A DNA stretch of 32,000 bases from Methanocaldococcus jannaschii DSM 2661 (GTDB lineage: Archaea; AGJL01; Methanococci; Methanococcales; Methanocaldococcaceae): NCBI RefSeq assembly GCF_000091665.1, contig NC_000909.1, forward strand, positions 820,712 through 852,711. The letters run 5' to 3'. Numbering within the stretch: the stretch's first letter is position 1; every line of letters starts with the position of its first letter. Below, piece after piece: positions 2,405 through 22,771 of the stretch. The notes beneath the pieces were generated by a model that was not told the DNA's origin, did not search any database, and was given only the letters and a program-made list of their open reading frames with translations. Position numbers and translations under genes: made by a program.

Positions 2405-2485
2405 ATTGGATGTTTGGATTGTGAAATTCCATTATATAATTTAGTGATATAATATAAATATTTTTTGAGATTGAGGTGGCCAAAT

Positions 2486-3136
2486 ATGTTGTTAGACTAT
2501 ATTAAAAGTCGCCGAGGGGCAATTGGTATAGGTACGCTTATCATTTTCATCGCTTTAGTATTAGTCGCTGCAGTAGCAGCGGCAGTTATAATAAACACGG
2601 CAGCCAACCTTCAGCACAAAGCTGCGAGGGTTGGTGAGGAAAGTACAAGACAGGTAGCGAGTGGAATACAAGTATTAAAGATTACTGGTTATGCGGTAAA
2701 TACAAAAAATATAACAAAGCTTGCAATACTTGTGTCCCCAAATGTTGGGGATGAAATTGATTTATCATCTACAATAGTTACCATATCAAATGGGGATTAT
2801 AAAGCTTCATTAGTTTATGGAGGACAAATTACTTATGTAAATACTAATGGAACTAGGGACATATTTAATGAATCTTGGCCAAATATTGCCAATCCAACAA
2901 CAGAATTTGGAGTAATTGTCTTACAAGATGCTGATGGTTCTATGAACAATACCGAGCATCCAACAATGAACTTTGGAGATAAAGCCATAATTGCTATAAA
3001 TGTTGGAGATGTGTTTGGAGGTATTATGCCAAGAGAGAGAATATATGGAGAAGTTATTCCAGAATTTGGAGCTTCTGGAATTATCGAGTTTAGAGCACCA
3101 TCAACATTTAGTGAGCATGTAGTTACACTTCAATAA
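2486..3136 (+). CDS. flaB3: Archaellin FlaB3 (divergent third paralog)
   Basis: MLLDYIKSRRG|[30 protein letters not shown] 2486 is preceded by SD GAGGTGG (2473-2479). The TTG at 2465 in the ORF track would overlap the SD, so I reject it. Confidence 0.9.
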   Translation: MLLDYIKSRRGAIGIGTLIIFIALVLVAAVAAAVIINTAANLQHKAARVGEESTRQVASGIQVLKITGYAVNTKNITKLAILVSPNVGDEIDLSSTIVTISNGDYKASLVYGGQITYVNTNGTRDIFNESWPNIANPTTEFGVIVLQDADGSMNNTEHPTMNFGDKAIIAINVGDVFGGIMPRERIYGEVIPEFGASGIIEFRAPSTFSEHVVTLQ

Positions 3137-3148
3137 ATTCTATTTAAT

Positions 3149-3174
3149 TTAAGTGTTTTACACTTAAACTTTTT
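3149..3174 (+). terminator. Hairpin TTAAGTG-TTTTA-CACTTAA followed by T5 (candidate attenuator after the archaellin genes)
   Basis: Perfect 7-bp stem (3149-3155 / 3161-3167) with a T run at 3170-3174. It sits between the flaB3 stop (3136) and the flaC SD. Confidence 0.35.
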
Positions 3175-3187
3175 AAGGTGAATCCTT

Positions 3188-3777
3188 ATGGGGTTAAAAG
3201 ATATAATCGCCTCAATAAAAAATAAGATTCCAAAATTAAAAAAAAAGAAAAAAAATTAGATGAAGGACCTCCTGAAGAGGAGGAAAATTTACTGGAAGAC
3301 CCATTAGAAACTGAAAAATACGAGGAACTTGAACAAACAGTTAAAGACTTAATGGAAACCACAGAAGGTTTGTTAGCGAAAGTTAATGATATTGAATCCA
3401 AACTACCAAAGTTAGAATCTTCAATAAACAACTTAAGAAAAGAAAATGAAATGCTAAGAGTTGAACTTAATAAGATTAATGAAAATTTGCAGGATATAAT
3501 GGCTCTCTATGAAGTTGTATCAAATCAAATAAATCCCTTTATTGGGGTCTCAAAAATTACTGCAACAAGCTTAGAAAAACTTGAGAGATTAGAAACAGAA
3601 TATAAAAGACTTAAAAAAACTGTTGAAGAGCTTACAAATGATTTAATAATTCTTGGTTCTCTCTATTTGCACCAACTTGATATTAATCTTGATGAAATTA
3701 TTGAAGAGGTTTTGGAGGAGGAGATTATAAAGTCAATGTCCGGGGAGGATACTCATGATACAAAAGACAATAAGTGA
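3188..3777 (+). CDS. flaC: Archaellum accessory protein FlaC (ArlC). Needs a -1 frame change near 3241-3247. The uninterrupted ORF is only 3352-3777.
   Basis: SD AAGGTGA (3175-3181) lies 6 nt before ATG 3188. That frame reads MGLKDIIASIKNKIPKLKKKKKN* and stops at 3257. The -1 frame is open from 3226 with no ATG/GTG/TTG until 3352 and encodes the coiled-coil body. Position between flaB3 and flaD fits flaC. ATG 3352 has no SD. Confidence 0.75.
3238..3256 (+). other. A9-G-A8 slippery tract (A_AAA_AAG in phase at 3241-3247) at the flaC frame junction
   Basis: Zero-frame codons are TTA AAA AAA AAG AAA AAA AAT TAG. The -1 frame resumes at GAA 3247. A GC-rich hairpin CCTCCT-GAAG-AGGAGG follows at 3268-3283. 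Confidence 0.6.
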
Positions 3778-4783
3778 AACATCACCCCCTCCTATGTTCT
3801 CTGATGAGGAGATTCTTACAGAGGATGAAATTGAGGAATATTTGGATAATTTAAAATCAAAATTGCCATCTTTTGTTATCATCCTATTAAAAAACAATTT
3901 AAGAGGTAAGAGGGTTACAAAAAAACAGCTGGATAAGATTGTTGAGAGGATTACAGAGGTTCTATCAAAAGGAAGAAGGGATGATAAAACAGAAGAGCTC
4001 AATAAAAAGCTTCAAACTCTTGAACAGAAGCTTGATGCTATAATGAAACTTACTACAATGGCTGTTTCAACAAAAACTTCAGAAGAAATTGAAAAAATTA
4101 AAACTAATGAGAAAATAGAAATAGAAAATGCTCCTATTAAAATTAAAAGTGAAGAAAAACCTGAAAAGCCGGTAGAAATTGAAGTAAGTAAGAAAAAAGA
4201 GACTATGGATACTGGTAAAAAAACTGAAACTGAAGAGAAAGTTAAAGAGATTGAGGTTCCTAAACCTGTAGAAAAAACCCATGAAAAAGTTGAAGAAACT
4301 AAGACTAAGGGGGAGATTAAGAAAGAAGTCAAAAAAGAAGTTAAATTAAAAAAATATGAGCTACCTAAAGAATCACCTATGGGGGGAAGCTTTATGACAC
4401 CTATTGAAGAAGAGAAAGAATATAGATTGAATGACATTCCTGAAGATGCTGTTTCCATGACACTGGTATTTAAATGGCTGGAATTTTTGATTAGTAGGGG
4501 CGGTATGACATATTTACCAGACATTTTAGACTATTACAATAAGATTGGATGGATATCCAACAGAGTTATATTAAAGCTATTAAGATTTGCTAAGAATATG
4601 AAAATAACATTTGATGAGGAAGAATTAAGACCAAGGGATAAGCTATCACCAAGCGACCATATAGTGTCTCTCCTATATATAGAAAAGCTTGCAGGAAGAC
4701 CAATAGATTCCGAGATTCTTGAGATGTTGGAGATAGAAATTAGGAGAATAAAAAAATGGGCTATAGAATTACAATCAATCTAA
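3755..4783 (+). CDS. flaD: Archaellum accessory protein FlaD (ArlD) with a K/E-rich spacer and a C-terminal FlaD/E domain
   Basis: SD GGGGAGG (3742-3748) lies 6 nt before the ATG. The gene overlaps the flaC end by 23 nt. The C-terminal ~125 aa are paralogous to FlaE (LVFKWLEFL...DILDYYNKIGW...DHIVSLLYIEKL). Confidence 0.9.
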   Translation: MIQKTISETSPPPMFSDEEILTEDEIEEYLDNLKSKLPSFVIILLKNNLRGKRVTKKQLDKIVERITEVLSKGRRDDKTEELNKKLQTLEQKLDAIMKLTTMAVSTKTSEEIEKIKTNEKIEIENAPIKIKSEEKPEKPVEIEVSKKKETMDTGKKTETEEKVKEIEVPKPVEKTHEKVEETKTKGEIKKEVKKEVKLKKYELPKESPMGGSFMTPIEEEKEYRLNDIPEDAVSMTLVFKWLEFLISRGGMTYLPDILDYYNKIGWISNRVILKLLRFAKNMKITFDEEELRPRDKLSPSDHIVSLLYIEKLAGRPIDSEILEMLEIEIRRIKKWAIELQSI

Positions 4784-6934: not shown

Positions 6935-6955
6935 TTGTAGATTTTGGTGATAATA

Positions 6956-8599
6956 ATGAGTGAAGCGGAATTAAAAGAAGCAATGAAACGAAATCCGCAT
7001 TTACGAAGATACATCGAGAACTTTAAAAGAACCTATATGCGAATCCCAGACTTTATGGTCTCACTCTCAAGAGAATTAAAGGAGCTAAAATATCCAAATA
7101 TTATCTATCCCGTTGGAGACCCAATCTTTATTCATATATTTGGAACTCCAGAAACAAAGACAAAATATATCGTTATTGAACCAACATTAGAAACTGCCGA
7201 AGAAAAATTAAAGTATAAAATGATATTAAACAAAATTTTAGAGCTCGCCCCTTATGAAGAAACTCCTAAGAGTGTAGAAGAGTTTGAAGAGGTTTTAACG
7301 AGATTATTTAATGCCTGTACAAAGGTTACTGAGGCAGTTGGGGAGGAGGGGTTTTTTCAAAGAATATTTAGGTTTGCAGACAATAAAATTAAAATCACAC
7401 CAGAGGAGAGAGATAAATTCCTTTACATATTAAAGAGGGATTTAATAGGTTTAGGTAATCTTGAGCCCATTGGTAGAGACCCATACTTAGAGGATATTCA
7501 CGTTATCGGTCCAAAAAATTGTCATGTTGTTCACAAAATTTTTGGAATGTTACCTACAAATATTACATGGGAAGATGAGATTGAACTTGCAGATTATTTA
7601 AAAAATTTAGGAGAACGAATGGGTAGGCCAGTTTCAGATGCTAACCCAATAGTTGATGGAACACTACCAGATGGTTCAAGGATTAACATTATCTACTCTA
7701 CAGATGTCTCTCCAAAGGGTCCATCATTTACAATTAGGAAATTCACAGATGTTCCTATCAGTGTTACACAACTTATTAGCTGGGGGACATTCTCAACTGA
7801 AGTTGCAGCATATTTATGGCTATGTTTAGAGTATGGTATGAGTATCTTTATTTGTGGGGAGACAGCATCAGGTAAAACAACAACATTAAACGCAATCTTA
7901 CCATTTATAAAACCAAATTCAAAGATATTCTCTTGTGAAGACACTCCAGAAGTTAAACCACCTCATCCAGTATGGCAGCAGTTAGTTACAAGAGAGAGAG
8001 GGCCAGAGGAGAGTAGAGTTACACTCTTTGATTTGTTGAGGGCTGCATTGAGGTCAAGACCTAACTATATTATTGTTGGAGAGATTAGAAGTGTCGAGGC
8101 AGCAGTTGCTTTCCAGGCTATGCAGACTGGACACCCTGTTCTCTCAACTTTCCACGCAGCTAATGTTAGAAAGATGATACAGAGGTTGAATGGAGACCCA
8201 ATCAATGTCCCATTAACATTTATGGATAACTTAAACGTTGCACTCTTCCAGCTTGCCGTCTATCAGAGAGGTAAGGTTTTGAGAAGAGTAGTTTCTATTG
8301 AAGAAATTGAGGGGTATTATAAAGAGGTAGATGGAGTCGTTACAAGGGCGGTGTTCCAATGGGAGCCAGATAAAGACAGGCATGTATTTACTGGAAGAAA
8401 TAACAGTTATGTCTTAGAGGAGAAGATAGCTAAGGCAGCGGGATATGAAGACCCAAGAGATATTTACAATGAGTTAGAATTAAGAGCAAGAATCTTAGAG
8501 GAAATGATTGCAAGAGAAATTTTCGATTACTACCAAGTTAGAGATATAATATGGGCATTTTACGAAAAAGGATTGGAGGGACTTCCATTCCCAATCTGA
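6956..8599 (+). CDS. flaI: Archaellum motor ATPase FlaI (ArlI), type II/IV secretion ATPase family
   Basis: Walker A GETASGKTT. The block IIVGEIRSVEAAVAFQAMQTGH is typical of VirB11/PilB-like ATPases. ATG 6956 follows SD GGTGA (6946-6950). Confidence 0.95.
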   Translation: MSEAELKEAMKRNPHLRRYIENFKRTYMRIPDFMVSLSRELKELKYPNIIYPVGDPIFIHIFGTPETKTKYIVIEPTLETAEEKLKYKMILNKILELAPYEETPKSVEEFEEVLTRLFNACTKVTEAVGEEGFFQRIFRFADNKIKITPEERDKFLYILKRDLIGLGNLEPIGRDPYLEDIHVIGPKNCHVVHKIFGMLPTNITWEDEIELADYLKNLGERMGRPVSDANPIVDGTLPDGSRINIIYSTDVSPKGPSFTIRKFTDVPISVTQLISWGTFSTEVAAYLWLCLEYGMSIFICGETASGKTTTLNAILPFIKPNSKIFSCEDTPEVKPPHPVWQQLVTRERGPEESRVTLFDLLRAALRSRPNYIIVGEIRSVEAAVAFQAMQTGHPVLSTFHAANVRKMIQRLNGDPINVPLTFMDNLNVALFQLAVYQRGKVLRRVVSIEEIEGYYKEVDGVVTRAVFQWEPDKDRHVFTGRNNSYVLEEKIAKAAGYEDPRDIYNELELRARILEEMIAREIFDYYQVRDIIWAFYEKGLEGLPFPI

Positions 8600-20717: not shown

Positions 20718-21698
20718 TTAGAAGTTAATTTCTAAACTCTTACAAATATCTAAGATTTTATCTTTGCTTAACTCTTCTATTTTGTAATACTTAAATCCAA
20801 ATCTATTAGCGATCTCCTTTCCAATCCCAATCTTTATAAATGATTGTGGTTCTGTATCAATTAATATAACGTTAATGCCCTTTTCAGCTATCTTCTCACA
20901 TGCATCAAAAACCTCTTTAACATAATCCTCCTTAACAGCTACATTTGGTTTGAAATCGCTAATTACAATCATTATTGGGATAATATTTGGATTTTTTCTA
21001 ATCTCTCTATCAAAGACCTCATAACTCTTAATAAAGGCATCAGCTAAAGGTGTTTTTCCTCCAGTTGGTAAATCTTTTAATAGTTTCTCTCCCAACTCTA
21101 CTGAAGATGTGAATGGCAAGATTAACTCAGCTTTATCCTTTCTAAATGCAATCATTCCAATTTTATTCCTCTTTTGATATGCATCTAAAAGTAGAGAGAT
21201 TATAGCCCCCTTAGCAGCTTCCATTCTTCTCATTGCTCCCATTGAGCCACTTGCATCAACAACAAATAATATATGGGAGGATATCTTCCTCTGTCTAACT
21301 TTCTCAACAATATCCTCTTTTTCTAAGTAGATGGCTAATTTTTTGTTGGCTTTTTCTCTTCTCTTTTTTTGATGTATTGCCGCTCTTCTAAATGTTGCAT
21401 CGAAGGCAATATCTATAATTTTATCATTAGCAAGTTTAAATTTAATATACCTCCCTCTTCTGCTGTAGCTTTTAATATGCCTTCCAGAACCATATCTATG
21501 GATATTATCTTTAAGTTTGAATTGTATAAGCTTAGGATTTACCTTAACACTCTCATCTATGCCAAAGGTTTGTTCAAAATCTCCAGTAGTATCTTCATTT
21601 TGGTTATTTTGATTATTAGAGTTGTCATTATTATCTCTTTCATCGTTACTGGTTTCTTCCTCAAACTCATTCTTTATTTCATCATGTTTTTTTTTACG
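20718..21698 (-). CDS. chlD: ChlD/BchD-type acidic linker plus vWA (MIDAS) domain. No start codon of its own before 21242. Reached from chlI by a -1 shift.
   Basis: The frame is open for 152 codons upstream of the first ATG (21242) with no ATG/GTG/TTG. That ATG lies inside the MIDAS motif [10 protein letters not shown]. Upstream it encodes the linker [32 protein letters not shown]. The ATG-limited ORF is 20718-21242. Confidence 0.75.
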
Positions 21699-22771
21699 TC
21701 ATCATCTTTATGCTCTTCTTTCTCTTCATTATCTTTATTATTTTGCTGTTTAAATTCATTAATCATCTGCTCCAACTTCTCTTTATTTAGTTGTGGAGGT
21801 TCAAATGGCTTTCTTCTCATTCTATGTGGTAGAGCCAACTCCATAGCCTCTTTAACATCATCTATAGTTACATAAGTTCGTCCATTGTAAGCAGCTAACG
21901 CCTTAGCTGTTCTAACAACGGTTATATCTGCTCTATTTGTCTGAATTCCTAACTCAATACAAACTTTAGATATAAATTCTAAGAGGTCATCACTTATCTC
22001 AACTTTATTTAAAAGCTCTCTTGCTTTAATTATCCTCTCTCTTAATTTGTTCTGCTCTTCCTCAAATTTCTTATAAAATGCCTCTGGATTTTCGTTGAAT
22101 TCCTCAACTCTCTTTATAACCTCTACCCTATCTTTAACATCATTTAATCCTTCAACATCAACCATTAAACCAAATCTATCTAAGATTTGAGGTCTCAACT
22201 CTCCCTCCTCTGGGTTCATAGTCCCTACTAATATAAATCTTGAAGGATGCTTTATCTTAACTCCTTCTCTCTCAATGATATTCCAACCCATTGCTGCAGC
22301 ATCCAACAAAACATCAATTATATGGTCATCCAGTAAATTAACTTCATCAATGTATAGGATATTTCTATTTGCCTCTGCTAAAATTCCTGGCTCTAATGCT
22401 TTAATTCCTTCTTTTATTGCCTTCTCTATATCCAATGTTCCGATAACCCTATCTTCAGTAGCTCCAATTGGGAGATTAACTACTTTCATCTTCTTTTTTG
22501 TAGTTTTTAACTCTCCTCTCTTTTTCTTTTCTTTGCAAATATCACATAGGTTTCCATTTGGGTCGCAGTTGAATGGACATCCTTCAACAATTTCAATCTC
22601 TGGGAGTAAATCAGCCAAAGCCCTAACTGCTGTAGATTTCGCTGTCCCTTTCTCTCCTCTAATTAAGACACCACCAATCTTTGGATTTATTGCATTTAAG
22701 ATCAATGCTTTTTTCATCTTTTCCTGTCCAACTATTGCTGTAAATGGGTAAATATACTGCATAATCATCAC
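21674..22771 (-). CDS. chlI: AAA+ chelatase subunit ChlI/BchI homolog
   Basis: [16 protein letters not shown], Walker [10 protein letters not shown], Walker [10 protein letters not shown], and the arginine-finger region. Start is GTG 22771 or ATG 22768/22762. Confidence 0.9.
21687..21695 (-). other. A9 tract (coding strand) at the chlI / chlD frame junction
   Basis: The minus strand reads GAC GTA AAA AAA AAC ATG ATG AAA TAA in the chlI frame. The -1 frame reads (TGA) CGT AAA AAA AAA CAT GAT GAA... Confidence 0.6.

Follow-up and report, generated by a model that had tools for sequence, protein, structure and literature searches.

The flaC (arlC) gene of Methanocaldococcus jannaschii DSM 2661 is split between two reading frames. 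The stretch examined here (the window) covers 32,000 nucleotides of contig NC_000909.1 (assembly GCF_000091665.1; positions 820,712 to 852,711, forward strand) and contains the fla (arl) operon, in which flaC follows flaB1, flaB2 and flaB3 and precedes flaD, flaE and the genes onward, an order found in all related loci. Comparison with these loci indicates that the split is real and conserved, that both frames are under selection, and that the change of frame takes place within a run of nine adenines (A9). Programmed −1 recoding at this run very probably produces a FlaC protein of 196 amino acids. Recoding had been one option of the original prediction, which was made from the letters of the sequence, and it gains strong support here, as three genera have kept the split together with its run and its −1 direction and the fused product aligns from end to end with in-frame relatives. 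The fuller proposition of a conserved programmed split yielding a 196-amino-acid FlaC, with slippage of RNA polymerase as the main mechanism, is in our judgement slightly better than an even call on the sequence patterns described below.

The frame that opens at ATG 3188 (window coordinates; hereafter the zero frame) translates to MGLKDIIASIKNKIPKLKKKKKN, 23 amino acids in length, and ends at TAG 3257-3259. Shortly before this stop codon lies a tract of A9 (3238-3246), G (3247) and A8 (3248-3255), which is read in the zero frame from the codons TTA AAA AAA AAG. The −1 frame, which carries the FlaC body, is open from 3226, and its earliest ATG, GTG or TTG is the ATG at 3352. A −1 shift, or the addition of one A, joins the two segments into a 196-amino-acid product, MGLKDIIASIKNKIPKLKKK|EKKLDEGPP.... 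The original prediction had described AAGGTGA at 3175-3181 with ATG 3188 and the stop at 3257, an A9-G-A8 tract with the heptamer A_AAA_AAG in phase at 3241-3247, the ATG at 3352 as the first start codon of the −1 frame and as one lacking a Shine-Dalgarno (SD) sequence, and the 196-amino-acid fusion product. All of these elements are present. The phase of the heptamer follows from the four codons given above, no SD sequence precedes ATG 3352, and the fusion product is obtained by a −1 shift (or by one extra A). The length of about 190 amino acids that the prediction gave for full-length Methanococcus FlaC is also borne out by M. maripaludis (186), M. voltae (188) and M. vannielii (187). The features are listed in Table 1.

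Table 1. Features of the split flaC gene, of its operon and of the second split gene in the window
Feature	Position	Strand	Remarks
SD sequence AAGGTGA	3175-3181	+	6-nt anti-SD match (AGGTGA); spacer of 6 nt, then ATG 3188
Zero-frame N-terminal coding segment, codons 1-20, MGLKDIIASIKNKIPKLKKK	3188-3247	+	homologous to MPNISEIIEEIKQKIKLGRK of in-frame Methanococcus FlaC
A9 slip tract, site of frame change	3238-3246	+	holds in-phase A_AAA_AAG at 3241-3247
Second run, A8	3248-3255	+	specific to M. jannaschii; shorter or absent in other species; possible extra slip site
TAG closing the zero frame for unshifted decoding	3257-3259	+	23-aa product
FlaC body, −1 frame (EKKLDEGPPEEEE...DNK)	3247-3777	+	stop 3775-3777; includes acidic linker 3247-3351, left out of current annotation
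ATG, database start of MJ0894	3352-3354	+	141 aa, N-terminus METTEGLL; probably an internal Met
Tryptic peptides LDEGPPEEEENLLEDPLETEK and YEELEQTVK			encoded 5′ of Met 3352, −1 frame
Hairpin CCTCCT-GAAG-AGGAGG	3268-3283	+	−11.9 kcal/mol; z = −3.0 vs shuffles
flaB1	994-1647
flaB2	1730-2383
flaB3	2465-3136
Overlap of flaC 3′ end and flaD start	3755-3777	+	flaD ATG 3755, SD-like GGGGAGGA upstream
flaD	3755-4783
flaE, flaF, flaG, flaH			between flaD and flaI
flaI	6944-8599		followed by flaJ
Split Mg-chelatase-like gene	20718-22771	−	slip run T9 21687-21695 (A9 on the minus strand), GTA AAA AAA AAC

The database entry MJ0894 (AAB98897.1, Q58304, WP_010870408.1) corresponds exactly to the 141-amino-acid open reading frame (ORF) at 3352-3777. 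The FlaC_arch domain (Pfam PF05377) matches residues 65-119 of the fused protein with a score of 79.5 bits (cut-off 27.8). The architecture of a full-length FlaC, with a basic N-terminal peptide, an acidic linker and a coiled-coil core, is complete only when the −1 shift is applied.

The flaB3-flaC regions of relatives were retrieved, mostly via exact-protein matches. The set includes 12 distinct Methanocaldococcus sequences: M. jannaschii, an 89%-identical metagenome relative (L033), sp. 16A, five further metagenome or Logan variants, M. infernus, M. villosus (two assemblies and one Logan contig), M. lauensis (three) and M. indicus. All 12 have an SD sequence and ATG, the conserved N-terminal peptide M(G/N)(I/L)KD(I/L)I..IK.K(L/I), a run of exactly A9 and the FlaC body in the −1 frame. 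The comparison of 5′ regions that had been proposed as a check thus returned the same A-run split in every Methanocaldococcus sequence examined. The codon phase of the run is also the same in 12/12, namely [NNA][AAA][AAA][AAN] with N = G or C, and the flanks vary synonymously. Apart from one row with an alignment artefact, each of the nine A positions is constant in the aligned DNA, compared with only about 6 of the 48 other third codon positions. For M. fervens, M. vulcanius, FS406-22 and M. bathoardescens, the annotated products of 134-163 amino acids are consistent with the split, as far as annotation alone can indicate.

Four further lineages (a Methanothermococcus sp. Ax23-like lineage, a second Methanothermococcus represented by GCA_000376965.1 and relatives, Methanofervidicoccus abyssi and the metagenome lineage L039) carry A10 at codons 11-14, six codons earlier than in Methanocaldococcus, with a TAG directly after the run and the body again in the −1 frame. 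Their zero frame reads MPNISEII.EIKKK*, and the −1 body begins KKKIAFGK.... The frame disruption is therefore common to 16 distinct lineages in three genera. In the mesophilic Methanococcus species (M. maripaludis, M. voltae and M. vannielii), FlaC (186-188 amino acids) is encoded in one frame, and at the corresponding site M. maripaludis has GAG ATA AAA CAG AAG ATC AAA TTA GGC, without a long run. Because the 32-kb window contains only two homopolymer runs of at least nine, both at −1 junctions of split genes, and because the layout recurs in every related genome examined, the flaC arrangement is more than a product of chance.

A few contigs depart from these patterns. Among Methanothermococcus metagenome contigs, L024 has A7 (1333-1339) with the same frame state as the A10 lineages, and L026 has A9 (1332-1340) followed by a second run of A7 rather than A8, so that its start and distal body share a frame with a stop codon between them. 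These may be natural variants, intermediates in the migration of the site or assembly errors. Two in-frame, full-length FlaC proteins were also found on short Logan contigs, P0012 (182 amino acids, of the Methanothermococcus type, which would match an A8 run) and P0029 (203 amino acids); they may be sequencing artefacts or come from genuine in-frame lineages.

Fused products, which were built by adding one A to each run, are 183-199 amino acids long. They align end to end with M. maripaludis FlaC without an insertion or deletion at the junction (EIKKKIAFGK in the A10 type versus EIKQKIKLGR), and more distant in-frame FlaC proteins show the same succession of basic N-terminal peptide, acidic linker and coiled coil. 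An alignment of the 196-amino-acid product to Methanococcus N-termini had been suggested with the original prediction; it is collinear, and the segment encoded by 3188-3247 finds its match. The median ratio of nonsynonymous to synonymous substitution rates (dN/dS) over seven Methanocaldococcus lineages is 0.30 from the ATG to the run (zero frame), 0.59 for the linker between the run and Met (−1 frame) and 0.09 for the body, which indicates that purifying selection acts on both halves of the gene. Over the 36 codons that follow the run, the −1 frame has no stop codon in 10/10 lineages, whereas 2-4 stop codons occur in the zero frame and 2-12 in the +1 frame, and the tail of the zero frame after the run is not conserved. 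The body frame opens 3-36 nt 5′ of the run, and the zero frame closes 0-46 nt 3′ of it. Because the run is the only segment common to all of these windows of frame overlap, the shift must occur within it.

The same comparisons bear on where translation of FlaC begins. Most lineages have an SD sequence of the AGGTGA type before the upstream ATG, and the in-frame flaC of M. maripaludis has GGTGAT. After the run, the body frame lacks any ATG, GTG or TTG for 59-161 nt in 13/13 lineages. The annotated internal starts are without an SD sequence, are ATG in some cases and TTG in others, and differ in position. In view of the coding, stop, start-codon and SD evidence, the split is thus poorly explained by internal initiation, by re-initiation after a leader peptide or by decay to a pseudogene. 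Internal initiation and re-initiation in particular were rejected, since neither an SD sequence nor a conserved start codon is available for them and the 59-161 nt that follow the run lack start-type codons in the body frame.

One could still argue that the N-terminal segment is either the remnant of a decaying sequence or a leader peptide of its own and that the functional FlaC is the 141-amino-acid protein from ATG 3352, which contains the whole FlaC_arch domain and is the form annotated in all databases. The domain content is a point against our own interpretation, as a truncated FlaC could be functional. We nevertheless regard this alternative as improbable. Not only does ATG 3352 lack an SD sequence, but its Met is not conserved, and the annotated starts are scattered so widely that the resulting products range from 115 to 163 amino acids. 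From the run to this Met, a stretch of 35-40 codons has no stop in the −1 frame of any lineage and contains the common motif ELE.TV..L. The 17-20 codons upstream of the run, with the dN/dS of 0.30 given above, match the N-terminus of the in-frame Methanococcus FlaC. It had been proposed that orthologues starting at the equivalent of Met 3352 and lacking upstream homology would speak against a fused product; the alignment column of this Met is Gly in M. lauensis, and the region 3188-3351 is homologous among the orthologues.

A homopolymer miscount in the 1996 reference genome, with flaC in fact continuous, was another option of the original prediction, and it would seem to be favoured by two public contigs that carry a continuous 196-amino-acid ORF. 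A search with the fused 196-residue sequence returned two exact or near-exact full-length versions, P0001 and P0046, both from Logan assemblies. P0001 (contig L002, SRR6983783) has A10-G-A8, and in 4136 bp compared with the window this contig also shows one substitution and another inserted A, which turns A6 into A7 and breaks flaB3. P0046 (L027, ERR9765774) has A9-G-A9 together with T7 in place of T8 at 2397-2404. A third contig, L031 (ERR9765750), has A8-G-A8 and terminates at the tract. Miscounted homopolymers are common on the Ion Proton platform. Both ERR9765774 and ERR9765750 were sequenced on Ion Proton P1 from mock communities of DNA (PRJEB52977; PMC9652401 Table 4). The in-frame M. 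jannaschii contigs (L002 and L027) are unreliable. The 141-amino-acid call of M. jannaschii occurs in 42 blocks of the contig index, and the DNA of 23 contigs carrying it was read. An independent Logan read-set assembly (L028) and a metagenome-derived NCBI assembly (L029) match the window at 100% identity along 1626 bp, and the genomic state of M. jannaschii is A9-G-A8. Since the identical tract recurs in L028 and L029, and since many independent assemblies of orthologues share the out-of-frame A9, the idea of a sequencing error was rejected, and we give it hardly any credence.

The three deviating contigs could instead be taken as alleles of a phase-variable gene, in which replication slippage would switch between A9 (OFF) and A10 (ON) and thereby turn archaellation on or off in subpopulations. 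In bacteria, motility genes are classic examples of phase-variable loci, and long homopolymer tracts mutate at high rates (PMC3711429). However, L027 and L031 stem from the mock-community runs just described, L027 having also miscounted the T8 run, and L002 carries the insertion that breaks flaB3. Phase variation predicts a mixture of states, and yet 16/16 distinct lineages are in the state that needs a −1 shift. No ON allele was found in any isolate genome examined, and nearly all metagenome contigs also need −1. Phase variation by insertion or deletion, which the original prediction had listed as well, thus finds no credible in-frame allele in its support and seems very improbable to us.

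Programmed −1 recoding at the run is accordingly the interpretation that we pursue. For the slipping machine, the efficiency of the shift and its regulatory purpose, we infer the following. Translation would start at ATG 3188, behind the AAGGTGA SD sequence. During transcription, the archaeal RNA polymerase would re-align on the A9/T9 hybrid and add one A to a fraction of the transcripts. Only transcripts with the added A would encode full-length FlaC, the frame moving by −1 within 3238-3246 to give a 196-amino-acid protein collinear with the 186-188-amino-acid FlaC of Methanococcus, and unshifted messages would yield the 23-amino-acid peptide. A contribution from ribosomes that slip by −1 on the in-phase A_AAA_AAG is possible. 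A likely consequence is that FlaC would be produced at a set fraction of initiations in the polycistronic fla operon.

Slippage by the polymerase is suggested by the length of the run, which is always 9-10 A in the 16 lineages, though seven would serve a ribosome, and by the base 3′ of the run, which varies (G, C or T). The threshold for slippage is about 8-9 A/T; the Thermus thermophilus dnaX gene uses A9, and in many bacterial genomes selection against runs prone to slippage becomes apparent from a length of nine (PMC1088944, PMC3711429). In the other 29 ORFs of the window, 67% of Lys codons are AAA, yet none of the seven Lys-Lys-Lys triplets is written AAAAAAAAA, which is consistent with avoidance of such runs, although the sample is small. 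Several points weigh against the polymerase. A −1 ribosomal slip and a +1 insertion of A give the same protein (...KLKKK|EKKLDEG...), so the genome sequence by itself cannot separate them. Every lineage has the fixed codon phase and an in-phase heptamer of the type X_XXY_YYZ, a requirement for frameshifting by the ribosome but not for slippage by the polymerase; the phase would likewise be held constant by the need to encode Lys-Lys-Lys. The A7 of L024, which has the same frame state, is short for polymerase slippage. An archaeal RNA polymerase is not known to slip on A9.

The alternative machine is the ribosome itself, with programmed ribosomal frameshifting (PRF) by tandem slippage of tRNA-Lys on the in-phase A_AAA_AAG, helped in M. 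jannaschii by the downstream hairpin. We consider PRF possible but rather unlikely as the main mechanism. It accords with the presence of an in-phase heptamer in every lineage (A_AAA_AAC or A_AAA_AAA in relatives) and with the TAG that abuts the run in the zero frame of the A10 lineages, as a stop codon adjoining the slip site is a known stimulatory context. Significant hairpins lie about 20 nt downstream of the run in M. jannaschii and M. infernus. However, this spacing exceeds the 5-9 nt that usually separate a slip site from its structure, and the downstream structure is not conserved: the hairpin of M. infernus (z = −3.5) is a different one, and the other six of the eight lineages are not significant (z from −0.16 to +1.23). 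The length of the run, kept at 9-10 A, is two or three above what PRF needs. By inspection of 13 lineages, we found no GGAGG or GGTGA in the A/T-rich 12 nt 5′ of the run that could act as an SD-like stimulator, and a search of Rfam gave no meaningful match in 3050-3450. The original prediction had combined a heptamer like that of Escherichia coli dnaX with the hairpin at 3268-3283. The heptamer is indeed in phase and the hairpin is present, but significant structure is confined to M. jannaschii and M. infernus, and the role of a stimulator was rejected for the hairpin on account of this lack of conservation. It is probably a by-product of the codons for Pro-Pro-Glu-Glu-Glu-Glu (PPEEEE). In favour of PRF, an archaeal −1 event on A_AAA_AAT is documented for fucA1 (PMC1616953).

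The out-of-frame state of flaC may be a selected regulatory device that has arisen or moved at least twice, with temperature- or nucleoside triphosphate-dependent slippage setting or tuning the amount of the motor/switch protein ArlC relative to the archaellins, although we put this forward as a tentative idea with less than even prospects. The site lies at codons 11-14 in Methanothermococcus and Methanofervidicoccus and at codons 17-20 in Methanocaldococcus, whereas the mesophilic Methanococcus species lack it. The arrangement could be regulatory or merely tolerated; where the polymerase of a cell already stutters on long stretches of A, the split might persist without being selected. If slippage at flaC is indeed a selected device, it would be the first chromosomal case of programmed transcriptional slippage by the archaeal (Pol II-like) RNA polymerase. 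The split also suggests a simple route by which an accessory protein could be kept below the level of the archaellins, whose genes precede it in the operon.

As judged from the sequence comparisons, flaC is an added case of poly-A −1 recoding, conserved at two codon positions across at least three genera of thermophilic Methanococcales. In the members of this group examined, which include the first sequenced archaeon, FlaC/ArlC is annotated as a protein of 115-163 amino acids with arbitrary starts. The real FlaC is probably 183-199 amino acids long and has a conserved basic N-terminal peptide and an acidic linker, so that the database entries are truncated at the N-terminus. This truncation affects structural and interaction work on the ArlCDE motor/switch complex. 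A genetic system and a recombinant RNA polymerase exist for M. jannaschii, and because of these, polymerase slippage and ribosomal frameshifting can be directly told apart in an archaeon. Archaeal genes for which recoding on the chromosome has been demonstrated are very few (reviewed in PMC8211752 and PMC5009743). Recoding of flaC/arlC is not mentioned in the study of Antonov et al. (2013) and two of its supplementary files, in an archaellum history review, in an archaeal recoding review, in the review of Atkins (2016) or in the results of full-text searches, a survey that did not cover the GeneTack database. A literature search likewise returned no data on FlaC of M. jannaschii.

Some further features of the operon were noted. 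The flaD start lies 23 nt within the 3′ end of flaC, and FlaD translation could therefore depend in part, through coupling, on ribosomes already shifted to the frame of the flaC body. In M. villosus, flaD itself contains a run that differs between three sources, two assemblies and a Logan contig (near 2032 in L009, near 2025 in L010 and near 733 in L011): A6 gives an intact FlaD of 298 amino acids, and A5, found in two of the sources, gives 46 + 252 amino acids, which may reflect polymorphism or a homopolymer miscount. The N-terminal ~62 residues encoded by flaB1 (994-1180) and flaB2 (1730-1916) are identical and their DNA is nearly so, pointing to recent duplication or gene conversion; the repeat also yields doubled spurious ORFs on the minus strand. 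Between flaB2 and flaB3, immediately 3′ of flaB2, the T8 run at 2397-2404 may act as an archaeal terminator of the oligo-T type and so reduce read-through to flaB3, flaC and the genes onward.

The nearest precedent lies in the same window, where the other long run occurs in the Mg-chelatase-like gene. There, an AAA+/ChlI ORF of 365 amino acids closes shortly past the run, and a VWA domain is encoded further on in the −1 frame. This gene belongs to a Methanocaldococcus/Methanococcus cluster of Mg-chelatase (ChlI/ChlD-like) −1 frameshifts, and a cassette with 9 A taken from the cluster shifted frame at 40% in E. coli (Antonov et al. 2013, NAR; PMC3711429); later reviews cite the cluster as a likely archaeal case. 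The two genes share the genome, an A9 in the phase [NNA][AAA][AAA][AAN] and the −1 direction, and in both the shift joins ORFs that are fused elsewhere. They are of different families, and the flaC site is near the 5′ end (codons 17-20), whereas the chelatase site is between two large domains; the chelatase frameshift was tested only in E. coli reporters. Among bacterial systems, T. thermophilus dnaX resembles flaC in having a homopolymer of nine in a thermophile, and Shigella mxiE resembles it in requiring slippage for the longer, functional product (PMC1088944). In both cases a bacterial RNA polymerase takes the place of the archaeal, Pol II-like enzyme that transcribes flaC, and the standard product of T. 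thermophilus dnaX is the long one. The dnaX gene of E. coli has the identical heptamer A_AAA_AAG in phase, but it also has an upstream SD sequence and a downstream stem-loop, and flaC has neither an SD-like element upstream of its run nor a conserved downstream stem-loop; moreover, the shift in E. coli dnaX gives a truncated protein, in contrast to the full-length protein expected from flaC. Phase variation of bacterial motility genes such as Campylobacter flhA likewise involves a homopolymer tract in a motility gene, but the flaC tract keeps its length from one lineage to the next, and ON alleles were not found. The fucA1 case, which has a 7-nt site, is not known from more than one species, and flaC differs from it by its conservation across three genera and its 9-10 A. 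In Saccharolobus solfataricus, fucA1 is an archaeal chromosomal gene in two ORFs that are joined by a −1 shift at the A-rich heptamer A_AAA_AAT (PMC1616953; PMC8037382), and it is in this arrangement that flaC resembles it.

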